A stretch of 64,000 nucleotides of DNA from Candidatus Kapaibacterium sp. (GCA_038202665.1 JBBRES010000001.1:13255-77254); one strand, 5' to 3'; positions 6,742 to 15,146 are shown, counted from the first letter of the stretch. The notes: a model not told the origin generated them from the sequence alone. Translations and numbers: made by a program.

Positions 6742-6869
6742 GGGGCCACGCGTCAGATCAAGGCTGAGCGATGTAAGGGAAACAACCGGTTCAAGCATAT
6801 ATGGACGAAAATAGACCCCTTTCCCCTTTCCCCTTTCACTTTCCTCCTTCACCTGTATCTTTGTTCACC

Positions 6870-7682
6870 ATGAATCCCTCCATTCGCAAACGCGTGACCA
6901 CTCGCAGAGTGATCGAAATGAAGCGGGCCGGCGAGCCGATCGCCTGCCTTACGGCATACGATGCCATGACGGCAGCGTTGTTCGATACGGCGGGGATTGA
7001 TGTAATACTTGTGGGAGACTCCGTAGGGAACGTTGTGCAGGGTCATGAGACCACGCTCCCGGTCACCCTCGAACACATGATCTACCACACGCAGGCAGTG
7101 ATGCGCGGAAATCTCCACGCACTCATCGTCACAGACATGCCGTTTATGTCGTACCAAGTCACCCCTCAAGAGGCTTTCCGCAACGCAGGAAGGATCATGA
7201 AGGAGGCAGGGAGCGGGGCCGTGAAGCTCGAGGGTGGACAGCGTGTTCTCGACGCGGTGCGTATGATGACCGACAGTGGCATTCCGGTGATGGGTCATCT
7301 TGGCCTTACCCCTCAGAGCATCCATCAGTTTGGTTCCTACAAGCAACGTGGCACTTCCGAAGAAGAGGCAGACACAATCAAGCGGGATGCCGTTGCCTTG
7401 CAAGAGGCTGGGGCGTTTGCCGTTGTGTTGGAGAAGATTCCGGCAACGCTTGCCGCAATTGTCACGTCGATGGTAGATATACCAACGATTGGCATTGGCG
7501 CTGGCACGGCGTGTGACGGACAGATTCTTGTGTGGACCGATATGTTGGGCATGAGTACCGAGTTTCGTCCGCGCTTCGTACGTCGGTACGCAGAGTTGCA
7601 CGACGTGATCACGTCGGCCGTAGCCGCCTATGTAGAAGATGTTCGTGAGCGTCGGTTCCCAGACACCGAGGAAAGCTATTGA
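6870..7682 (+). CDS. panB: 3-methyl-2-oxobutanoate hydroxymethyltransferase
   Basis: PanB family similarity (MKRAGEPIACLTAYDA...ILVGDSVGNVV). The start was taken at MNPSIRKR. Confidence 0.9.
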   Translation: MNPSIRKRVTTRRVIEMKRAGEPIACLTAYDAMTAALFDTAGIDVILVGDSVGNVVQGHETTLPVTLEHMIYHTQAVMRGNLHALIVTDMPFMSYQVTPQEAFRNAGRIMKEAGSGAVKLEGGQRVLDAVRMMTDSGIPVMGHLGLTPQSIHQFGSYKQRGTSEEEADTIKRDAVALQEAGAFAVVLEKIPATLAAIVTSMVDIPTIGIGAGTACDGQILVWTDMLGMSTEFRPRFVRRYAELHDVITSAVAAYVEDVRERRFPDTEESY

Positions 7683-8074
7683 TGCGCTTTCTGATGTGGG
7701 CTGGTACGTTGTGTGGCATCGTCGGACTTTCCGCGTGCTCGTCGCAACCAACGATCTCCGATCCCTCGCAAGTGGTGTTTCCGGACAGTGGGGTAAGCTA
7801 TCGCGCTACGGTTCAGCCCTTTATGACGGTAACCTGTGCGTTCTCTCAATGCCACGGAGAGGTGAGCCCTGCCGGTGGCATACGATTGAATGATTACACA
7901 GGAATCTTATTCAGTCGTGGTAATCTTGCCGTTCCTGGAAAACCTGACGAGAGTTTGATCATTCAAGTCTTAGACAAACGCGTCGCCCACGGCGTAGGCC
8001 TTTTGGATCGCGTGAATGCAAACCATTACGCCGGTATGCGTCGCTGGATTTCTGAAGGCGCATTGAACAATTGA
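7682..8074 (+). CDS. lipoprotein with PSCyt1-like (planctomycete cytochrome c-like) domain and atypical CX4CH heme motif
   Basis: Lipobox LSAC. The motif CAFSQCHG is followed by GGIRLNDY...PGKPDESLIIQVL, typical of PSCyt1 domains. The ATG overlaps the panB stop (TGATG). Confidence 0.5.
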   Translation: MRFLMWAGTLCGIVGLSACSSQPTISDPSQVVFPDSGVSYRATVQPFMTVTCAFSQCHGEVSPAGGIRLNDYTGILFSRGNLAVPGKPDESLIIQVLDKRVAHGVGLLDRVNANHYAGMRRWISEGALNN

Positions 8075-8102
8075 GAACACGGATTTTTTTACGGAGTCAT
8101 TC

Positions 8103-9122
8103 ATGAAGTCTCTACAATCGTTGGCCATCCTTGCCACCCTCGCTTTTTTTGTGGTATCGTGTTCAAAGCATGGCACACCAACGCCGGTGGACGGACTCAC
8201 GGTATACACGGACCAGGTGCGCGACTTTTCGGTGAAAACGCCCGCGGGTTGGTTTACGCAAAAAGTGCCGGGTGAATTGATCGTGGTGCATTCTTCGAAA
8301 GAAGGCGCACGTCGGTTCATGAACTACGGCAAAGGTCCGGCTGGATGTAGAATCGAATACCGTGTGATTCGCTTGGATTCCACGCGTACGATCGACACAC
8401 TTATCCAACGCAGCAAGCTTGAGTTCGAAGACAATCTTCCGCGTGGAACCGTAACCGCCACAACGTTTGCCGGCTCGCCTGCGAAAAAACTCACCTTGGA
8501 GTTTGAGCAAGAAGACGGGACCTTTAAGTCCGAGGCCTATTTCGTACAAAAGGATTCTTTGGTGACCATGCTGTACTTCGGCGCCTTTGGCAGCACGTAC
8601 AAGGACTACGCGTCGACGTTTGACGAGATCTTGAAATCCGCATCGATTGCCAAGGATCGTCCGAAGGTAGAAGTGAAGAAGGACACGGCGGCTCCACGCG
8701 GACCTGAGCCGCCATCAGATACGTTGCGCAATTACAGCGCGCCGGAATTCTCTATGGATATTCCACAAAACTTCCAAGGAACGAAGTCATCCTCTGCCGG
8801 CGTGATCTCGTCGGTAAACATGGTTGGCTCTCGCTTCGACTGTAATATTCAGGTAGACGTCTTCGATGCATCAAAGCAGAGCAACCTCGACAAGATCATC
8901 GATCAGAACAAGGCAAAGTATGGTTCGTCGCCGAGCAACACGAACCTTGGTGGCCAGAAGGCAGCATACTTTACGTATGGCGGCGGACAGGTGTCGAGTC
9001 GTGCGTACTTTGCCGTGAAAGGCAATCGCATGTTCCGTGTTACGGTAAACATCTACAAGCCGGATCAAGGTGTGTATCAACCGATCTTCGACAAGTGTCT
9101 CGGCTCGTTCAAGATGAAATGA
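8103..9122 (+). CDS. hypothetical lipoprotein (two internal repeats of a PsbP/DUF1795-like domain)
   Basis: Signal peptide with lipobox VVSC. The two halves are internally similar. A hairpin lies about 50 bp downstream. Confidence 0.45.
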   Translation: MKSLQSLAILATLAFFVVSCSKHGTPTPVDGLTVYTDQVRDFSVKTPAGWFTQKVPGELIVVHSSKEGARRFMNYGKGPAGCRIEYRVIRLDSTRTIDTLIQRSKLEFEDNLPRGTVTATTFAGSPAKKLTLEFEQEDGTFKSEAYFVQKDSLVTMLYFGAFGSTYKDYASTFDEILKSASIAKDRPKVEVKKDTAAPRGPEPPSDTLRNYSAPEFSMDIPQNFQGTKSSSAGVISSVNMVGSRFDCNIQVDVFDASKQSNLDKIIDQNKAKYGSSPSNTNLGGQKAAYFTYGGGQVSSRAYFAVKGNRMFRVTVNIYKPDQGVYQPIFDKCLGSFKMK

Positions 9123-9210
9123 CGTTCTTCACAGCTATGTAACGAAAAGCGCCTCGTCGGTCTTTACTGACGAGGCGTAGTCACTTGAACACTCACCCCT
9201 TCCCAGATAA

Positions 9211-10404
9211 ATGCATCAACTCGTACGACGGTCACTCCTCGGCATCTGTTTCCTCTTCGCCTGCACGGCTCTCCATGCGATTCCGCAATTCTCGCTGATT
9301 AGTGGGAACCGTTGTTCTGGTTGCCACGTGAATGCGCAGGGATCGGGTTTGCGCACAAACCTCGGTTGGTATTCGTACATGGATGTGAGCATGATTCCAC
9401 GCGAGGGGAGCTTCCTGAGCGGATTGTATAAGGGCGATGAATCGAATCAGTTTCTTGACGACAAGCTCACGCTAGGCATTGACGTGCGCGTACAGAACAC
9501 GAGATCGTTTTACGATTCCGCCGCACCGCGCACCACATTCCCTATGCAGGCCAACCTCTATGCCTCCTATGAATTCGCAAAGGAATTCATGGTGGAGGGG
9601 TCGTTCAACTTCGCAGCCTTGCGCAAGGCACCGAACTCCACAGATGTAGTGCGCTATCCGGGGCAACGCGCCGGCACCTTCAGTGCATACTTCAAGCCGA
9701 GTGATTCTCTCCCAATGCTTCGCGTTGGCTTCTTCCGTCCAGCAATCGGACTCCGATGGGACGACCACACGGCATTCACGAATTCCTACGTAACGGGATC
9801 GTCACGTCAAGCGCTTGTAGCACCAATGTGGGCAGAGGTTGGAGCAGAGATCAGTTATGAATCACTGAAGTGGCTTACGATTCAGGCTGGTGTGTTCGGT
9901 TCCTCTGGTTTGTCTGAGCTCAAGTTCAGCGACGGAAAAAATCTGTATGCGGCCTTCTCTGGGAATGCCCCAACCTACACCGCACGAATCATGGTGTGGC
10001 CGCGGGCCTTCGACGACAAGATCAACATGTTCTTTGGCGCATCGGGCTTAGTGAACTACAACCTTGGGATGGTGAATGCGTGGGCTGGCGTAGGCCTCAC
10101 GGATTGGCTGGCACTGCAGGCCGAGTTCATGCATCTCGATCGCGTAGGTGTGCTTCAGGCCAATAACATCACCGCCGAACTCATGGTACAGGTATGGTCT
10201 CCACTACTTCCCTACGTGCGTTTTGAACATGGTGAAACACGTCGTGCTCAAGTGACAGATCTAGCATCGGTAAACAGTATCATCCTTGGCGCACAACTCT
10301 TTCCTATCCCGTACGTCGAGATTCGCCCTGAGTATCGCATTTGGGACACCGCACTTCCGGGCTATACATCACGTTGGAACGTACAGCTCCACATCTTCTA
10401 TTGA
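9211..10404 (+). CDS. Cyc2-like fused monoheme cytochrome-porin (outer-membrane beta-barrel with N-terminal CXXCH)
   Basis: A signal peptide (..CTALHA) is followed 13 residues later by CSGCH. The remainder is rich in amphipathic beta strands and ends in a terminal aromatic (..HIFY), as is typical of outer-membrane barrels. At 397 aa it fits the short Cyc2 cluster. Confidence 0.5.
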   Translation: MHQLVRRSLLGICFLFACTALHAIPQFSLISGNRCSGCHVNAQGSGLRTNLGWYSYMDVSMIPREGSFLSGLYKGDESNQFLDDKLTLGIDVRVQNTRSFYDSAAPRTTFPMQANLYASYEFAKEFMVEGSFNFAALRKAPNSTDVVRYPGQRAGTFSAYFKPSDSLPMLRVGFFRPAIGLRWDDHTAFTNSYVTGSSRQALVAPMWAEVGAEISYESLKWLTIQAGVFGSSGLSELKFSDGKNLYAAFSGNAPTYTARIMVWPRAFDDKINMFFGASGLVNYNLGMVNAWAGVGLTDWLALQAEFMHLDRVGVLQANNITAELMVQVWSPLLPYVRFEHGETRRAQVTDLASVNSIILGAQLFPIPYVEIRPEYRIWDTALPGYTSRWNVQLHIFY

Positions 10405-10412
10405 GGTAGACC

Positions 10413-10724
10413 ATGCTCTGGAAACTCATCATTGCCATGTCTTGTGTGTCGATCCTTGCCGGTGGCGTTCTCTGGATTAAGGACGGTTTCATCCTGTTCC
10501 CGCACGATCGCGAAGAGATTCGAACGACCGTCACCGATCCGTTGTTTGGCACAACGAAAGAAGAAATCACCTGGAAGTCTGTTGAACCAAAGTACGGACT
10601 GCTTCCGCAAGGAACAGACGTCTCCGACATTCCGCGCTCCTACATCTTTGTGGTGGGAGCCAGCGGTACATTCATCCTGCTTGGCCTTGTTATGCTCAAG
10701 CGTCAACGAAAGCACACAACCTAG
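10413..10724 (+). CDS. small membrane protein (2 TM)
   Basis: 103 aa with two hydrophobic segments. It is tightly packed between the Cyc2-like and Rieske genes. Confidence 0.35.
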   Translation: MLWKLIIAMSCVSILAGGVLWIKDGFILFPHDREEIRTTVTDPLFGTTKEEITWKSVEPKYGLLPQGTDVSDIPRSYIFVVGASGTFILLGLVMLKRQRKHTT

Positions 10725-10727
10725 ATC

Positions 10728-11219
10728 ATGAAGAACGAACACCATCACGATTGCTCGACGTCACGACGGGACTTTCTCTGCAAATCAGCTTCTGTTGGGG
10801 CCGCGATTCCGTTCATCACGATCTCGTCATTGATTGTTGCTTGTGAGAAGCAAGAAGGTCAGGTCGTGAATCCGGGAGTATTTATCACGGTAGACATTTC
10901 TACAATTCCCGAATTGGCCGCTGTTCCTAGCATCATTCTTACAAGCGTTACCGGACTGAACAACGGAGACCCTGTTTTCATCTCTCGTGTGACGACGACT
11001 GCGTTTACGGTCTTCACTGGAATTTGCACACACAGTGGCAATCCCATCAATCCGCCTGAAGCACCGCTTGCTCGACTTGTGTGTCCGTACCACAATGCGG
11101 AGTTCTCGAAGGCCGACGGGACCGTACAGAAGCAACCATCATCTGGCTCTGCGCGCAACCTTCCTACGTTTACGGCAACGTTCGATCCATCGAAGAACAT
11201 TCTGTCGATCACTCCATAA
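10728..11219 (+). CDS. Tat-exported lipoprotein Rieske-type [2Fe-2S] protein
   Basis: Twin-arginine motif SRRDFL, a hydrophobic region ending in LIVAC (lipobox-like), and Rieske motifs CTHSG...(16)...CPYH. The Box I disulfide Cys is absent, so this is the low-potential Rieske type. Confidence 0.7.
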   Translation: MKNEHHHDCSTSRRDFLCKSASVGAAIPFITISSLIVACEKQEGQVVNPGVFITVDISTIPELAAVPSIILTSVTGLNNGDPVFISRVTTTAFTVFTGICTHSGNPINPPEAPLARLVCPYHNAEFSKADGTVQKQPSSGSARNLPTFTATFDPSKNILSITP

Positions 11220-12208
11220 TGCAAATGCTAGACCTTGCGTTCGACGCCGTTGTCGAGCGGGGCAAACATCTTTCCTCGGTTCTTGCGGCACTGTTCGCGC
11301 AGATCAAACCAGATCAAGAAGAAGCCACGGCCATACGACATGAGCTGTACCATCGCATACGTGCGCTTGGCATGCCTTCGTTTTTGCGTGAACGTATTGA
11401 ACAAGCCTACGGTCCATCCGTCGCCGAAGCCATCATCTCATCCAGCATGGTCGATGCGCCCGTCTTCATACGTGCGAATACACTTCGTGCTAAAGTTTCG
11501 GACGTTCAACAAGCTCTCCCCGGCTCCATCCTTCGTACAGATTTTGGTTTTGAAGCTCTCGAGATTCCTGAGCCGTATGGACTCTTTCGCACCCAAGCCT
11601 ATGTAGATGGTTGGTTCGAACAGCAAGACCTTGCATCGCAGCGCGTGTCTGAAACACTCCGCTTACAACCTGGAATGCGTGTTGTAGATGCCTGTGCCGG
11701 CGCCGGCGGCAAGTCGTTGCACATGGCCGCACTCATGAAGAATACCGGTCGCATCATTGCACTCGATGTGGCCGAAGACAAGCTCAATACGCTACGGAAG
11801 CGTGCTGCACATGCAGGCGTGTCGATCATCGATCCCCGACCAATCTATTCCACCAAGATTATCAAACGCCTTGCCGATTCTGCAGACAGAGTCTTGCTGG
11901 ACGTGCCATGCTCTGGAACTGGTGTTTTGCGTCGCAACCCCGACATCATGATTCATACGAGCGAGACATCGCTTCTGGAGTTGCAAGACATTCAAGCCGA
12001 CATTCTCCGGCGTAATGCGCGCAGTGCAAAACCTGGTGGCTTCGTGTGTTATGCAAACTGCAGTGTACTGCCCGAAGAAGGACGCTTGCAGATAGAACGA
12101 TTCTTACAAGAAAGCGGCAGTGCCTTTACACTCTTGGAAGAGTGGCAGACATTGCCGCACGAGCTCGATTGCGATGGATTCTACGTTGCACTCATGCAAC
12201 GGTCATGA
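11219..12208 (+). CDS. RsmB/Sun-family rRNA (cytosine-C5)-methyltransferase
   Basis: SAM-binding motif VDACAGAGGKS and catalytic motifs DVPCSGTGV and CYANCS. The start was taken at MQMLDLAF, which is in frame with a longer ORF. Confidence 0.8.
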   Translation: MQMLDLAFDAVVERGKHLSSVLAALFAQIKPDQEEATAIRHELYHRIRALGMPSFLRERIEQAYGPSVAEAIISSSMVDAPVFIRANTLRAKVSDVQQALPGSILRTDFGFEALEIPEPYGLFRTQAYVDGWFEQQDLASQRVSETLRLQPGMRVVDACAGAGGKSLHMAALMKNTGRIIALDVAEDKLNTLRKRAAHAGVSIIDPRPIYSTKIIKRLADSADRVLLDVPCSGTGVLRRNPDIMIHTSETSLLELQDIQADILRRNARSAKPGGFVCYANCSVLPEEGRLQIERFLQESGSAFTLLEEWQTLPHELDCDGFYVALMQRS

Positions 12209-12916
12209 CACGAGATAGCGCATGAGTTTGCGTTTTGCAATAGGCAGGATCGTGGCTTCGAACGAAAAATCAAGGTCGGTATCACAAATGAACGTAGCAG
12301 GATTCGGCAACTCTTTGTTCACGGCCACGAGCTCCAACTTTACATCCTCTGGCGCACGCAGCACGACGTCTTCCGTCAATGTGTCAATCTCCACTGTTCG
12401 CATCGCGCGGTACTGTTCATCCTCTGCGGTAAACAACGACATTTCGTATCGCAACACATGGAACAACTGCGCACGGTGCTCGGGGATGAGCACGTATCCT
12501 TCGTCACGATACAGCGGCACAATTCCCACTTCCCCAATCTTCATGTGTTCATTCACAAAGTCGTACACGGCTGCCCCTTCCTCTCTCAAAACCCTCAACT
12601 GCGGAAGTGCCCATGTGATGAGTGCGAACATTTTTTCGATCGACTCGGAGTCGGCAGCCACCGTATCAAAGATCAAAGAATTCTTCTCGAGGTCTACTCC
12701 CTTGAGTATTCTTGGCGAATGTGTTCGGAACTGTTCACCGAGTCGGAGAATGGTTTCCAACATCGACGTCAGTTCCACCACGTCTGTAAAACCTGGATAC
12801 AGTTTACTATGCCGAAGGTCCTGAGTGGCGGCATGGAGGGCGGCAAGGACACGATACTGACCCGCTTCTACGTCAGTACCAGCCTTGGTGAAGAGCTCAA
12901 GATCGAGATGTGTCAT
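12203..12916 (-). CDS. hypothetical protein
   Basis: 237-aa ORF with coding-like composition. It is convergent with the rsmB-like gene, and I recognise no family. Confidence 0.4.
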   Translation of the reverse strand: MTHLDLELFTKAGTDVEAGQYRVLAALHAATQDLRHSKLYPGFTDVVELTSMLETILRLGEQFRTHSPRILKGVDLEKNSLIFDTVAADSESIEKMFALITWALPQLRVLREEGAAVYDFVNEHMKIGEVGIVPLYRDEGYVLIPEHRAQLFHVLRYEMSLFTAEDEQYRAMRTVEIDTLTEDVVLRAPEDVKLELVAVNKELPNPATFICDTDLDFSFEATILPIAKRKLMRYLVS

Positions 12917-12986: not shown

Positions 12987-15146
12987 ATGCACACACTGTA
13001 CCTCTCTCTCTTCCTCGCCTTCTTCGTCGTCACAACGCACGCACAACAATGGCAACTCGGTTCGCATTCAAATGGCATTACGTCAATCACGGCTGTGCCG
13101 AGCGCATCAACGTTTGTGACCATTGGAAACGATGGCGTCCTGCACGCTTGGAATCAGCAAACTGGCGCTCCTCTATCTACAATCGCACTGTCGCCAGAGT
13201 CAAGCATGATCGGCAGCTACTTTATGCCACTGCTTCATGCACGCACAGACAGTGCCATGATCTACGTCGTTACGGCCCGGCGCATAAGCTGCGTGCAAGC
13301 AGATCTGAGTTCCGTGTTGTGGACGCTCGATCTTGAACAGGGCTCATTGCAAGACCTTGGTCTTACGACGGTGATAACGGATAGTATGATCTATCAAGAC
13401 CAGATCTCATCAACCGTGTTCATCAATCTTCATACCGGCCTGCGTACTACAGCACCTGTTGGTGGACTCCCACAACCCGCCCTTGGAAGTTGTCTGCGCG
13501 TAGTGGCAGATAGCATCTTTCGCATTCGGTACGAAGACGGCGCTGTACTCGATACGCTTGTGATGCCCAAGACGATCAAGGCCTTTGACGCCACACAAAG
13601 TGGCACACTCATGGCTGTGGCCACCGAAGAGAACACCTACATTGTTGCAGGCGATTCCTTGCATGCTATCGACAGCATCGGTGTTCCAAACTACTTTGGT
13701 GAGAGGATCTTGATCTCTCCTTCTGGCGGTCGCGTGGTAAATGCTCGCGGAATTCTTTGGAACCGATCGAAGAAGTCGAAGTATTCTTTCGACAACGACG
13801 ACAATGCTCCGTCTTCAGATCTTCTTACGCATCTCGCGTGGTCCAACAACGAGTCTATCGTGAGTGGCGTGGCGAAGCTTCCATGTTCAAACGGACTGGC
13901 CTGTAAGGGCGGATGGATGACTGTCTTCAACGCCAACAATGGCACCATTCTTTTTCATCCGATAGGAACGGTTGGCACGTCGTTCGACGCTTCGATTACC
14001 GACGATGGCGCGCATGCCGTTCTTGCTTCGACTGGATTGGTGTCTCTGCGACATGTAGTAGACGGCCGAGTAGTGTTGAATCGATGGCCACTCGCCACTA
14101 AAATGTTAGGCGGTACTACCTCTCCGACTGCGCAGTATGGAATGTTCGTGCACTTCGACGAAGACACCGGTGGCATCGATCCGATACCGATGATGACACT
14201 TCTCGCACCTTCACCGTCGCAGGCCACGATTGCATTTACAGTGCCTGTTGCAGTGCCTGTCTCTCCGCTCTTTGTCACAGATCGCATGACCTTTACAACC
14301 AATACCACCTACGTTGTAGATGTCCTCAACGGTACTCTTCGCGTTGTGCATGTTGCAACAAGCGCTCAGTCCGACCTTTCTGTGCAGGCCCGTTCTGTGA
14401 TTCGTTGTACGGGATCGGTTGTGGCCACGATGGTGGGTAGATCAACGGTGAGCATGATCGACTGTGCTTCATTGCAGCAAGTTGGCGGATTTAATGTGTC
14501 AGACTCCGTTGAATCGATTGCAGCCGTTCGTGGTACTTCTTGGCTCGTTGCCTCAACCGCGTCGCAGCGTTTCGTTTACGACATGGGCACGAATACCATG
14601 CTGGATACCGTAGGCATTGGGGTCGACAATATCGGTCGCGCCTTACGCACAAAGCACTTCATTGAAAAGACTGGCGTATTCGTTTCTACCCATGCACTCT
14701 CTGCATCATCGCACGAAATCATTGCAACACGATTGCGAGACGGGTTGATCATACGTCGTGGCGACACGGTGAACACCGACGTTGCAGACCTCTGTGTTTC
14801 GCCCAACGGATTTGCCGTCATCGTAGTTGCGTCGGACGGTCGCGTTACAACTACACGAGGCTTCACTGGTATTGACACTATCGCTGTTGATACGACATCC
14901 ACGTCGATCGCTGGTGAGCGACCCTTCGCCGAGGCGAACATCTCGATTTCACAGAGTGTTCTTCATGTCACATCCGTGGATGACTCGATCGTACGAGTAG
15001 AGGTGGTAGACATACTCGGTCGCCTTCTCTACTCCGGCATGGCAGACGAGCACACGGTAAACCTTGCCGCCTTCCCACACCAAGCTCTCTACGTGCGCGT
15101 CGTTGGACGCACCCAATCATGGACCCACTCGATCATCGCACCATAG
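12987..15146 (+). CDS. secreted beta-propeller protein with C-terminal T9SS sorting domain
   Basis: Signal peptide and WD40/PQQ-like repeats. The C-terminal ~80 aa (VLHVTSVDDSIVRVEVVDILGRLLYSG...ALYVRVVG) matches the Por secretion tail pattern. Confidence 0.65.
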   Translation: MHTLYLSLFLAFFVVTTHAQQWQLGSHSNGITSITAVPSASTFVTIGNDGVLHAWNQQTGAPLSTIALSPESSMIGSYFMPLLHARTDSAMIYVVTARRISCVQADLSSVLWTLDLEQGSLQDLGLTTVITDSMIYQDQISSTVFINLHTGLRTTAPVGGLPQPALGSCLRVVADSIFRIRYEDGAVLDTLVMPKTIKAFDATQSGTLMAVATEENTYIVAGDSLHAIDSIGVPNYFGERILISPSGGRVVNARGILWNRSKKSKYSFDNDDNAPSSDLLTHLAWSNNESIVSGVAKLPCSNGLACKGGWMTVFNANNGTILFHPIGTVGTSFDASITDDGAHAVLASTGLVSLRHVVDGRVVLNRWPLATKMLGGTTSPTAQYGMFVHFDEDTGGIDPIPMMTLLAPSPSQATIAFTVPVAVPVSPLFVTDRMTFTTNTTYVVDVLNGTLRVVHVATSAQSDLSVQARSVIRCTGSVVATMVGRSTVSMIDCASLQQVGGFNVSDSVESIAAVRGTSWLVASTASQRFVYDMGTNTMLDTVGIGVDNIGRALRTKHFIEKTGVFVSTHALSASSHEIIATRLRDGLIIRRGDTVNTDVADLCVSPNGFAVIVVASDGRVTTTRGFTGIDTIAVDTTSTSIAGERPFAEANISISQSVLHVTSVDDSIVRVEVVDILGRLLYSGMADEHTVNLAAFPHQALYVRVVGRTQSWTHSIIAP

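Follow-up and report, generated by a model that had tools for sequence, protein, structure and literature searches.

A Cyc2-like cytochrome-porin gene linked to a Rieske lipoprotein gene in Candidatus Kapaibacterium sp.: a candidate trans-envelope electron conduit

The window analysed here, a stretch of 64,000 nucleotides (64 kb) from Candidatus Kapaibacterium sp. (GCA_038202665.1 JBBRES010000001.1:13255-77254), was found to contain five tightly spaced open reading frames (g1 to g5) on the + strand, flanked by panB (PF02548, 388 bits) and by a gene for an RsmB/F methyltransferase (PF01189), with intergenic gaps of -4, 28, 88, 8 and 3 bp, in order. An earlier note on this DNA had described five close-set genes on one strand from panB to the rsmB-like gene, and all five were recovered in place. 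The g1 gene (7679-8074, + strand) encodes a 131-aa PSCyt1 lipoprotein with the lipobox LSAC and the sequence CAFSQCH (CX4CH), followed by g2 (8103-9122, + strand), which encodes a 339-aa PsbP/DcrB-type lipoprotein with the lipobox VVSC. Housekeeping genes (panB, rsmB-like, coaBC, ABC-F) were found around the cluster, and neither a terminal oxidase nor a bc complex nor any further c-type cytochrome was found within the 64-kb window.

The g3 gene (9211-10404, + strand) encodes a 397-aa fused monoheme cytochrome-porin in which a signal peptide (residues 1-23) is followed by a helical heme segment (residues ~24-80) and a 16-strand barrel (residues ~86-396). The hydrophobic N-terminus ends in LHA, followed by IPQFSLISGNR and by the single CXXCH of the protein, the heme c attachment motif CSGCH (residues 35-39; 9313-9327, + strand). 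The signal peptide was read from the sequence, with cleavage between LHA and IPQ, and from alignment of the N-terminus with homologs; the order of a signal peptide and a lone CSGCH was as previously described, whereas the distance to the likely cleavage site was found to be 11 residues and not 13. The CXXCH was present exactly once in 102/102 full-length homologs (four homologs lacking it are N-terminally truncated and stand outside the 102), and C35, C38 and H39 were invariant in 96 representatives of 22-46% identity. Since the CXXCH is invariant across homologs, the heme site is more than a chance match, and the conservation that the earlier note had called for is present. The motif is embedded in a signature of the family, A-x-P-[QR]-F-[SA]-x-x-x-G-x-x-CxxCH-[VI]-N-x-x-G-G-G-x-R. 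The barrel-like sequence with an aromatic end was also borne out, as the structure model confidently gave a 16-strand, OprP-like barrel and the C-terminus reads ...QLHIFY. The polar residues R93, M112, Q113, D184-D185-H186, R337, R372-P373-E374-Y375-R376, Q392 and H394 of the barrel interior were invariant or nearly so. No Pfam or NCBIfam model was found for the family, which is annotated only as hypothetical.

The g4 gene (10413-10724, + strand) encodes a 103-aa protein with two predicted transmembrane (TM) helices, a conserved loop of ~50 aa (TKD...DE[LI]FG...LGLLP) and a basic C-terminal tail. In an alignment of 19 orthologs, W21, F45, G46 and G62 were invariant and no Cys or His was conserved; no Pfam or NCBIfam match was found. 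The gene follows the cytochrome-porin gene in at least 36 loci and is also present in a rearranged locus (L165), and its product is probably an inner-membrane component.

The g5 gene (10728-11219, + strand) encodes a 163-aa Rieske [2Fe-2S] lipoprotein of the PetC3 type (Rieske PF00355, 34 bits), with the Tat motif RRDFL (RR at residues 13-14) followed by the lipobox IVAC with a predicted lipidated C39 and by the cluster ligands C100, H102, C119 and H122 (nt 11025-11093). The RR pair, C39 and all four ligands were invariant in 31 orthologs, and weak support for the export signal was given by TIGR01409 and UCR_Fe-S_N, so the earlier description as a Tat-exported, lipid-anchored Rieske protein is upheld. 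The flanking disulfide cysteines of CTHxGC...CPCH were found to be missing from the window protein (CTH...CPYH) and from its L001 and L002 counterparts, which together contain CTHSGN...CP[YF]H, whereas most orthologs contain CTHQGC...CPCH. The label "low-potential" given earlier therefore describes a trait of the window's sub-clade and not of the family, and the potential and stability of the window protein are uncertain because these cysteines are lost.

The best PDB match of g5 was PetC3 of Synechocystis sp. PCC 6803 (5CXM; Veit et al. 2016, cited in PMC10172866 and PMC12341915), which ranked first both with the single sequence (E 7.8e-5) and with the profile (E 3e-12). Both proteins contain a small Rieske domain of ~110 aa, preceded by a signal peptide and a lipidated Cys, and both contain A-x-F after CPxH, where high-potential Rieske proteins contain S-x-Y. 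Ser-to-Ala and Tyr-to-Phe changes of this kind are linked in PMC10172866 to a reduced number of hydrogen bonds at the cluster and to a lowered potential. PetC3 is described in PMC10172866 and PMC12341915 as a lipid-anchored periplasmic Rieske protein with an Em of +135 mV and without assignment to a bc complex; g5 is likewise predicted to be periplasmic, and no cytochrome b gene was found in any locus examined. The sequence identity of the two is low, the disulfide cysteines of PetC3 are absent from the window g5 and present in most of its orthologs, and g5 is genetically coupled to an outer-membrane cytochrome-porin, a coupling unreported for PetC3.

The earlier note had treated the five genes as a single module. 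They do not form a single uniform unit: g3-g4-g5 were found to be a widely conserved core, g2 and the order g1-g2-g3 were found only in a clade of 45-55% identity, and a strong hairpin lies between g2 and g3. The g2 gene was present only in L001-L036 and L064 and is an accessory gene of the close clade. Its product showed a weak PsbP match and no cofactor motif; among 18 orthologs, DcrB was matched in 14, PsbP in 6 and PsbP_2 in 4 (best E 4.7e-7), and a search for a PDB sequence match gave none. The hairpin (9149-9178, + strand) is a GC-rich stem of 13 bp in the g2-g3 spacer (9123-9210), whose folding energy is -25.6 kcal/mol (z = -3.4 relative to shuffled sequences, 0/200 of them as stable). 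No U-run follows it and it was absent from the terminator scan; it may mark a transcript boundary or a processing site that sets g1-g2 apart from g3-g5.

Of 80 family loci, 72 were found to contain, with the cytochrome-porin gene, a Rieske gene on the same strand, detected by HMM; the linkage extends to homologs of 29% identity and persists where the gene order has changed. In at least four of the eight loci without a Rieske gene (L025, L043, L060, L062), the sequence runs out within 1.5 kb on the downstream side of g3, and a clear absence was found only in L069 and L073. As a control, 80 loci around canonical-motif Cyc2-like genes (440 kb) were scanned, and no Rieske match was found. The small 2-TM protein, a YceI protein and cytochromes of the PSCyt1 or class I type were further frequent companions. 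The order was Rieske, porin, YceI and 2-TM in L165 (29% identity), Rieske, porin and PSCyt1 in L061, L074 and L079, and PSCyt1, porin, YceI, diheme and Rieske in L057. PSCyt1-domain proteins (17.8-38.1 bits) directly adjoin the porin in the distant loci L057, L061, L074, L079 and L080, diheme and tetraheme neighbours were found in L057 and L070, and L073 contained a class I cytochrome c gene immediately upstream of the porin gene. The remoter family members L161, L163 and L166 (23-28% identity) were solitary, with no redox neighbours. The heme motifs are kept across the orthologous clusters, and the combination of cytochrome-porin, Rieske and PSCyt1 proteins, which the earlier note could not match to a described pathway, was found to be conserved, with no description of it found in the literature. 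Most Kapabacteria-type genomes contain the module, which holds a fixed housekeeping position in one clade; this near-universal presence and fixed position suit a core envelope function as well as energy metabolism.

The preferred reading, with a probability of roughly 0.55, is that the locus encodes a distinct Cyc2-like cytochrome-porin family with a dedicated periplasmic Rieske lipoprotein partner, which together would form a trans-envelope electron conduit, probably inward. The g3-g4-g5 genes would be the core of a trans-envelope redox module typical of Kapabacteria and relatives, with g1 as a lineage-variable cytochrome partner and g2 as an accessory lipoprotein. The g3 protein would be a 16-strand porin of the outer membrane whose N-terminal segment covalently holds one c-type heme. 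The g5 protein would be folded and loaded with [2Fe-2S] in the cytoplasm, exported by Tat and lipid-tethered, and would exchange electrons with the porin heme in the periplasm as its dedicated partner; we infer the physical interaction of g3 with g5, the localisation of the Rieske anchor, the substrate and the flow direction. The g3 heme would be reduced by a donor, most plausibly Fe(II), that is extracellular or enters the pore, and electrons would then pass to the Rieske centre, to a monoheme cytochrome and to the aerobic chain. The electrons would be handed on by g1-type PSCyt1 or class I cytochromes c, the 2-TM protein g4 would provide the inner-membrane contact, and other lineages would add the YceI protein, of an isoprenoid/quinone-binding type. 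Carrier type is the ground on which inward flow is taken as the most likely direction, since all carriers (Rieske, monoheme c, PSCyt1) are single-centre and of a respiratory, moderately high-potential type. A role of g1 to g5 in extracellular electron transfer is a suggestion drawn from the sequences.

The Cyc2 criteria were taken as defined in PMC8406198 and FeGenie, and a set of 67 metagenome proteins satisfying the published motif criteria ("canonical-motif Cyc2-like") was used as a stand-in for Cyc2. Like Cyc2 of Acidithiobacillus ferrooxidans and Cyc2PV-1 of Mariprofundus ferrooxydans (PMC8406198), g3 was found to contain a signal peptide, one N-terminal CXXCH, a C-terminal aromatic residue, at least 365 aa, a 16-strand barrel with OprP as the best structural match and the core A-x-P-x-F-[AS]...G-x-x-CxxCH, with the same F-to-Cys spacing of 8 residues as in real canonical proteins (AVPSFARQTGMxC). 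Upstream of the heme, AXPXFAR[Q/K][T/Y] was replaced in g3 by AIPQFSLIS, which matches at A, P and F and lacks A-R-[Q/K]-[T/Y] (family consensus A-x-P-[QR]-F-[SA]-L). The PXL motif, 4 residues downstream of the CXXCH, was absent from both the window (CH-VNAQGSGLR) and the family (CH-[VI]-N-P-x-G-G-G-x-R); the family contains N-P/x-x-G-G-G-x-R with a 3-residue deletion instead, and aligning the two families with hhalign opens a gap of 3 residues precisely where FPE(L) stands. The heme segments were significantly similar at the profile level (probability 94.7%, E 5.9e-8, 32 columns; reversed control 1.8%), whereas the barrel-only profile comparison showed no detectable similarity (probability <1%) and the cross HMM scores were just 14-27 bits, from the heme segment. 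The barrel of g3 also differs from Cyc2 in many invariant charged residues (DDHT, RPEYR), its length is ~390 aa against 412-494 aa, and its gene partner is a Rieske lipoprotein in place of Cyc1, cytochrome c4 or rusticyanin. The Cyc2 resemblance noted earlier thus holds for the architecture and does not extend to the full upstream motif, the PXL motif or the barrel sequence. That g3 is merely a divergent Cyc2 (FeGenie cluster 1-3) acting as an FeOB-style Fe(II) oxidase, with a local and mechanistically irrelevant Rieske linkage, would agree with the complete Cyc2 architecture, with the common core and with the mutual identity of only 17-23% among Cyc2 clusters given in the supplement of PMC8406198. 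This is very improbable in view of the motif and barrel differences, of the presence of Cyc2 in photoferrotrophic Chlorobi and not in their non-phototrophic close relatives (Ward and Shih, PMC9342728) and of the Rieske linkage, which is not local because it holds in 72/80 loci and survives gene-order shuffling. On sequence comparison, g3 is best read as a member of a distinct Cyc2-like cytochrome-porin family, separate from Cyc2.

An outward flow, from the menaquinol pool through the Rieske lipoprotein and the porin heme to an extracellular acceptor (Fe(III), humics or a surface protein), would suit the natural oxidation of quinol by Rieske centres, and its first step might be helped by the 2-TM protein and by YceI, whose genes (PF04264, 92 bits) separate the 2-TM gene from the Rieske gene in ~17 loci but are absent from the window clade. 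A possible surface acceptor is encoded after the Rieske gene in 8 distant loci, namely an Ig-repeat protein secreted by the T9SS whose N-terminus carries a GC-x(1-4)-CH motif, and Cyc2 homologs are reported in Fe(III)-reducer relatives including Ignavibacteriaceae (PMC6344600). However, known outward conduits contain low-potential multiheme cytochromes and the carriers here are single-centre and of a higher-potential type, and Rieske quinol oxidation without a cytochrome b partner has no known precedent, which leaves this direction unlikely. Redox-assisted uptake or envelope homeostasis, in which the heme-porin would take in iron or some other redox-active solute and change its oxidation state, or would sense envelope redox, with the Rieske protein recharging it, is judged decidedly unlikely: the fixed housekeeping position and wide presence of the module, the barrel of OprP anion-channel type, the TonB-dependent receptor gene after the porin gene in L073 and the link of PetC3, the closest Rieske protein, to "cell envelope homeostasis" with no defined respiratory role (PMC12341915 and PMC10172866) are consistent with it, whereas the recurrent extra c-type cytochromes (diheme and tetraheme, L057 and L070) are more typical of an electron-transport chain and no iron-transport or regulator genes were found in the window cluster.

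Cyc2-type cytochrome-porins are the main genetic marker for iron oxidation in genomes and metagenomes, and the g3 family has the Cyc2 architecture yet fails the published Cyc2 motif criteria. In porin-cytochrome conduits, electrons cross the outer membrane through a multiheme cytochrome inside a large barrel, and the periplasmic partner of the outer-membrane conduit in known systems is a cytochrome or a cupredoxin. The role proposed for the distinct family and its Rieske partner is like that of MtrCAB, MtoAB/PioAB and Geobacter Pcc (PMC6344600), in that electrons would cross the outer membrane via a heme-holding beta-barrel; in MtrCAB-type conduits the multiheme cytochrome is a separate protein running through a 26-strand-type barrel, whereas here the heme is single and part of the 16-strand porin itself, and an iron-sulfur protein would serve as periplasmic partner. 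Tentatively, at somewhat less than even odds, a so far unrecognised conduit is put forward: a fused heme-porin of the outer membrane would depend in the periplasm on a lipid-anchored [2Fe-2S] Rieske protein as its obligate partner, and the 2-TM and YceI proteins would tie the conduit to the inner membrane or quinone pool. If true, it would give the first concrete function for orphan PetC3-type Rieske lipoproteins, for which the heme-porin linkage already offers a testable hypothesis, and would define a Cyc2-independent, or very deeply diverged, cytochrome-porin lineage in Bacteroidota-related heterotrophs. A tight and ancient coupling of heme-porin and Rieske lipoprotein would be a new periplasmic leg for extracellular electron transfer. 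If the g3 family is functional, iron or extracellular-electron capacity is being overlooked in Kapabacteria and Ignavibacteria-type heterotrophs, organisms often met with in lakes, sludge, groundwater and hot springs. As only three to five small genes are involved, the module is tractable for heterologous expression, as Cyc2PV-1 was.

The PSCyt1 assignment of g1 was confirmed with the HMM of the Planctomycete cytochrome C domain (PF07635; 28.1 bits, gathering cut-off 22), together with the signature Cx(n)CH...GG(I/L)RL. The product differs from PSCyt1 in being a stand-alone 131-aa lipoprotein instead of an N-terminal module within a large PSCyt2/PSD1 protein, and in the spacing of its putative heme motif, which is CX4CH in the window in place of the canonical CXXCH and, at the same position in orthologs, CX2CH (8 loci), CX3CH (1 locus) or CX4CH (the majority). 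An ATG at 7682 is also a possible start of g1.

Between panB (6801-7682, PF02548) and a gene for an RsmB/F-type methyltransferase (about 11222-12208, PF01189), the window was found to contain five ORFs on the + strand, namely g1 (7679-8074, a PSCyt1 lipoprotein), g2 (8103-9122, a PsbP/DcrB-type lipoprotein), g3 (9211-10404, a fused monoheme cytochrome-porin), g4 (10413-10724, a protein with two TM helices), and g5 (10728-11219, a Tat-exported Rieske lipoprotein). The spacers, in order from panB, were -4, 28, 88, 8, and 3 bp, and the GC content across the region was not unusual. These ORFs and the flanking Pfam matches confirmed the five-gene arrangement described in the earlier note. Its reading of the genes as a Cyc2-like extracellular electron-transfer module held for the architecture and for the partners, which were found to be wider than its author could see, whereas the label Cyc2 was not established.

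By the published definition (PMC8406198), a Cyc2 protein is at least 365 aa long and joins a signal peptide and a single CXXCH to a 16-strand porin, with the AXPXFAR[Q/K][T/Y] motif upstream and the PXL motif downstream of the CXXCH. All of the architectural features were found in g3, whereas only A-x-P-x-F of the upstream motif was retained, at the same distance from the Cys as in the canonical proteins (AVPSFARQTGMxC), and the PXL motif was absent. A profile search of a 5.8-billion-protein database with 96 diverse members of the g3 family found only members of that family and metagenome proteins without a name, and no named Cyc2. A synthetic probe made from the published Cyc2 consensus matched N-terminal fragments of 47-70 aa only; the alignment of real Cyc2-like fragments led to 80 metagenome loci and from there to 67 full-length reference proteins. 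This proxy set, which stands in for the FeGenie Cyc2, agrees with the published Cyc2 definition (412-494 aa, one CXXCH, aromatic C-terminus), and its plasmid-borne relatives in Acidithiobacillus ferrooxidans, Acidiphilium, Ralstonia, and others carry the annotation 'cytochrome C'.

The cross HMM scores between the g3 family and the proxy set were 14-27 bits. The full-length local profile-profile comparison gave a probability of 94%, with only the signal peptide and the heme segment aligned. The heme segment alone gave a probability of 94.7% (E 5.9e-8, 32 columns), with a 3-residue gap at the expected position of PXL, whereas its reversed control gave 1.8% and the barrel alone gave less than 1%. 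Because the heme segment matches the proxy set and the barrel does not, g3 is a protein of Cyc2 design with a related heme-binding segment, yet it belongs to a separate sequence family, set apart here through the 67-protein proxy in place of FeGenie clusters 1-3 (Cyc2 proper). A separate family agrees with the distribution reported by Ward and Shih, in which Cyc2 was found in photoferrotrophic Chlorobi and in none of their non-phototrophic close relatives (PMC9342728). Cyc2-like genes were also reported from Ignavibacteriaceae and Bacteroidetes MAGs (PMC6344600). No literature was found that connects Kapabacteria to Cyc2 function or to a Rieske partner.

The g3 protein did not match any model in Pfam or NCBIfam. 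Its family was found to contain 105 close clusters and, in an exhaustive search, 316 representatives at 50% clustering. Exactly one CXXCH was found in all full-length members, the four exceptions being N-terminally truncated, and C35, C38, and H39 of g3 were invariant among 96 representatives with 22-46% identity. Conservation of the heme motif, on which the earlier note had made its reading depend, was thus found throughout the family, and this invariance ruled out a chance CXXCH in an ordinary porin. The N-terminus contained the conserved signature A-x-P-[QR]-F-[SA]-x-x-x-G-x-x-CxxCH-[VI]-N-x-x-G-G-G-x-R and the C-terminus the signature Q-x-H-x-[FY]-[YF]. Unusually conserved polar residues were found within the barrel at R93, P111-M112-Q113, D184-D185-H186-T187, R337, R372-P373-E374-Y375-R376, and H394, of which M112 or H186 is the candidate distal heme ligand. 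The barrel expected from the note was present in a confident AlphaFold2 model (106 sequences, pLDDT 90.7, pTM 0.85), in which 16 long strands follow a short helical segment at the N-terminus. The design of a fused cytochrome-porin is already known; the separate and well-conserved cytochrome-porin family, which is without a Pfam or NCBIfam model and is annotated as hypothetical only, is new.

The full array of lpxH-like, panB, g1, g2, g3, g4, g5, and rsmB genes was found to be kept in about 38 species-level genomes, in which g3 was 45-55% identical; outside this clade the gene set was kept in part only and in differing orders. Many loci at 33-43% identity contained the order porin, 2-TM, (YceI), Rieske, with YceI matching PF04264 at 92 bits. 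The order was Rieske, porin, PSCyt1 protein in L061, L074, and L079, PSCyt1, porin, YceI, diheme, Rieske in L057, and Rieske, porin, YceI, 2-TM in L165 (29% identity). At L070, the genes beside the porin were two for Rieske proteins, one for a monoheme and one for a tetraheme cytochrome, and at L073 a class I cytochrome c was encoded immediately upstream of the porin. A Rieske HMM match was present at 72 of the 80 family loci, always on the strand of the porin gene; relative to the porin, 47 of the 74 matches were placed at most 700 bp downstream and eight at most 100 bp upstream. Among the eight loci without a match, at least four (L025, L043, L060, L062) end within 1.5 kb downstream, and only L069 and L073 clearly did not contain a Rieske gene. 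The same HMM gave no match on the 80 canonical-motif Cyc2-like loci (440 kb in total). The very distant family members, at 23-28% identity, were solitary.

Mere inherited synteny was ruled out as the explanation of the Rieske adjacency, because the adjacency survives shuffled gene orders among loci of 29-35% identity, and none of the control loci has it. That a heme-porin, an iron-sulfur lipoprotein, and c-type cytochromes stay together whatever the gene order is strong evidence for a shared redox function. The dedicated association of the cytochrome-porin with a PetC3-type Rieske lipoprotein, a 2-TM protein, YceI, and PSCyt1 or class I cytochromes is new.

Two paralogous modules of unlike composition were found in MAG JANYIG01, one with porin and Rieske (L038) and the other being L057. 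In eight distant loci, the Rieske gene is followed by one for an Ig-repeat protein, about 920 aa long where complete (L037 9994-12783, L042 6881-9643, L045 9915-12677, L049 9800-12553, L078 9614-12124; also L040, L068, and L071). These proteins contained a conserved G-[IV]-[ST]-G-x-[ST]-x-x-G-C-x(1-4)-C-H directly behind the signal peptide (e.g., GCSGAQCH, GCSCH), a region for which Pfam holds no model. The L049 protein, the one of these that was scanned in full, gave a weak match to the T9SS sorting tail (PF18962, Por_Secre_tail, 25.4 bits, cut-off 27). The Ig-repeat protein may be a surface partner that binds metal or heme. In L163 (3947-4998, 28% identity), the porin was preceded by genes for a ParA/CbiA-type ATPase and a 106-aa acidic protein, which are not redox partners, and a MopE-like copper-binding protein (PF11617) was encoded nearby on the opposite strand.

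The Rieske lipoprotein g5 matched PF00355 at 34 bits. Its 31 orthologs contained invariant twin arginines, the lipobox C39, and the cluster ligands C100, H102, C119, and H122. The top solved relative was Synechocystis PetC3 (5cxm; E 7.8e-5 with the single sequence, 3e-12 with the family profile), followed by the Chlorobaculum Rieske domain and bc1 Rieske proteins. PetC3 is reported to be a lipid-anchored Rieske protein of the periplasm with an Em of +135 mV and without an established function (PMC10172866; PMC12341915). Both PetC3 and g5 contained A-x-F after CPxH in place of S-x-Y, and substitutions of this type are tied to a lower Rieske potential (PMC10172866). The disulfide cysteines were missing in g5 itself and in the two proteins nearest to it, those of L001 and L002 (CTHSGN...CP[YF]H, window nt 11025-11093), whereas the majority of orthologs retained them as CTHQGC...CPCH (compared in L046, 9120-9605). 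The 'low-potential' label of the note is therefore plausible for the window protein, but as a trait of its sub-clade only. The cysteines were also lost independently in a few other orthologs (L042, L045, L071). A role of g5 as a subunit of arsenite oxidase or of a bc complex was ruled out, since no AioA or cytochrome b neighbour was found at any locus examined. In most Rieske orthologs, acidic residues follow the lipidated Cys in the pattern C-E-x-[DN]-E-[TS] (CEKQEGQ in the window, 10842-10862). Because this pattern is similar to K-(D/E)2, the export signal of Bacteroidetes lipoproteins (PMC5080379), the protein could possibly be anchored in the outer membrane, even surface-exposed, instead of in the inner membrane.

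The PSCyt1 domain of the lipoprotein g1 scored above the Pfam threshold, which bears out the PSCyt1-type partner named in the note. Its heme site is conserved with variable spacing, since the orthologs contained CX2CH at eight loci, CX3CH at one locus, and CX4CH in the majority; g1 did not match the PDB. No cofactor motif was found in g2, which by profile did not match the PDB either. In the small protein g4, two TM helices were found together with a conserved loop, about 50 residues long, and a basic tail at the C-terminus; no Cys or His was conserved.

The module brings together, in conserved co-location, a barrel of the outer membrane that has a conserved heme site, a [2Fe-2S] protein with Tat export and a lipid anchor, a membrane protein, and a putative heme lipoprotein. 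We infer that these proteins together provide a route for electrons through the envelope and that the module functions in extracellular electron transfer. The carriers, a PetC3-like Rieske protein together with cytochromes of the monoheme c or PSCyt1 kind, are all single-centre proteins of a type that serves on the high-potential side of respiratory chains, and for this reason inward electron flow is favoured. By analogy with Cyc2, electrons would be taken up from an extracellular or pore-entering reductant, Fe(II) being the obvious candidate, and g5 would stand where Cyc1, cytochrome c4, or rusticyanin stand in known iron oxidisers. A rival reading is the outward transfer of electrons from quinol, for which the YceI genes and the putative T9SS surface proteins with the GC-x(1-4)-CH motif downstream at eight loci speak. 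A non-respiratory role in uptake or homeostasis is also suggested, by the housekeeping gene context and by the existing knowledge of PetC3. Electron uptake remains the favoured reading of the three.

With GTG 11081 as its start, the mechanically called ORF of the rsmB-like gene shares 139 bp with the 3' end of g5. The start at ATG 11222 is more likely, because it lies 3 bp past the stop codon of g5 and the resulting product of 328 aa retains the full RsmB/F domain; panB, g1-g5, and rsmB may therefore share one transcript. The g2-g3 spacer (88 bp, 9123-9210) was found to fold at -25.6 kcal/mol (z = -3.4) and contained a perfect 13-bp GC-rich hairpin (9149-9178) without a U-run behind it. The hairpin lies where the clade-specific pair g1 and g2 gives way to g3-g5, the core that is conserved widely. 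Scans for sigma-70 promoters and intrinsic terminators found none beyond the shuffle expectation. The 64-kb window did not contain an oxidase, a bc complex, an additional c-type cytochrome, or a YceI homolog. The 719-aa protein at 12987-15146, which the earlier note had treated as T9SS cargo, did not match Pfam at E<=1e-5, and neither did the product of the conserved divergent 237-aa gene at 12203-12916.

The closest genome loci (92-93% protein identity) were found in MAGs labelled Candidatus Kapaibacterium or Bacteroidetes, and the broader set in those labelled Kapabacteria, Ignavibacteria, or Chlorobiota, together with several evidently mislabelled bins. The full-synteny locus was also present in MAGs named Hyphomicrobiales, Patescibacteria, Didemnitutus, or Bradyrhizobiaceae (L004, L011, L019, L020, L021, L024, L035), which are probably mislabelled or contaminated bins.
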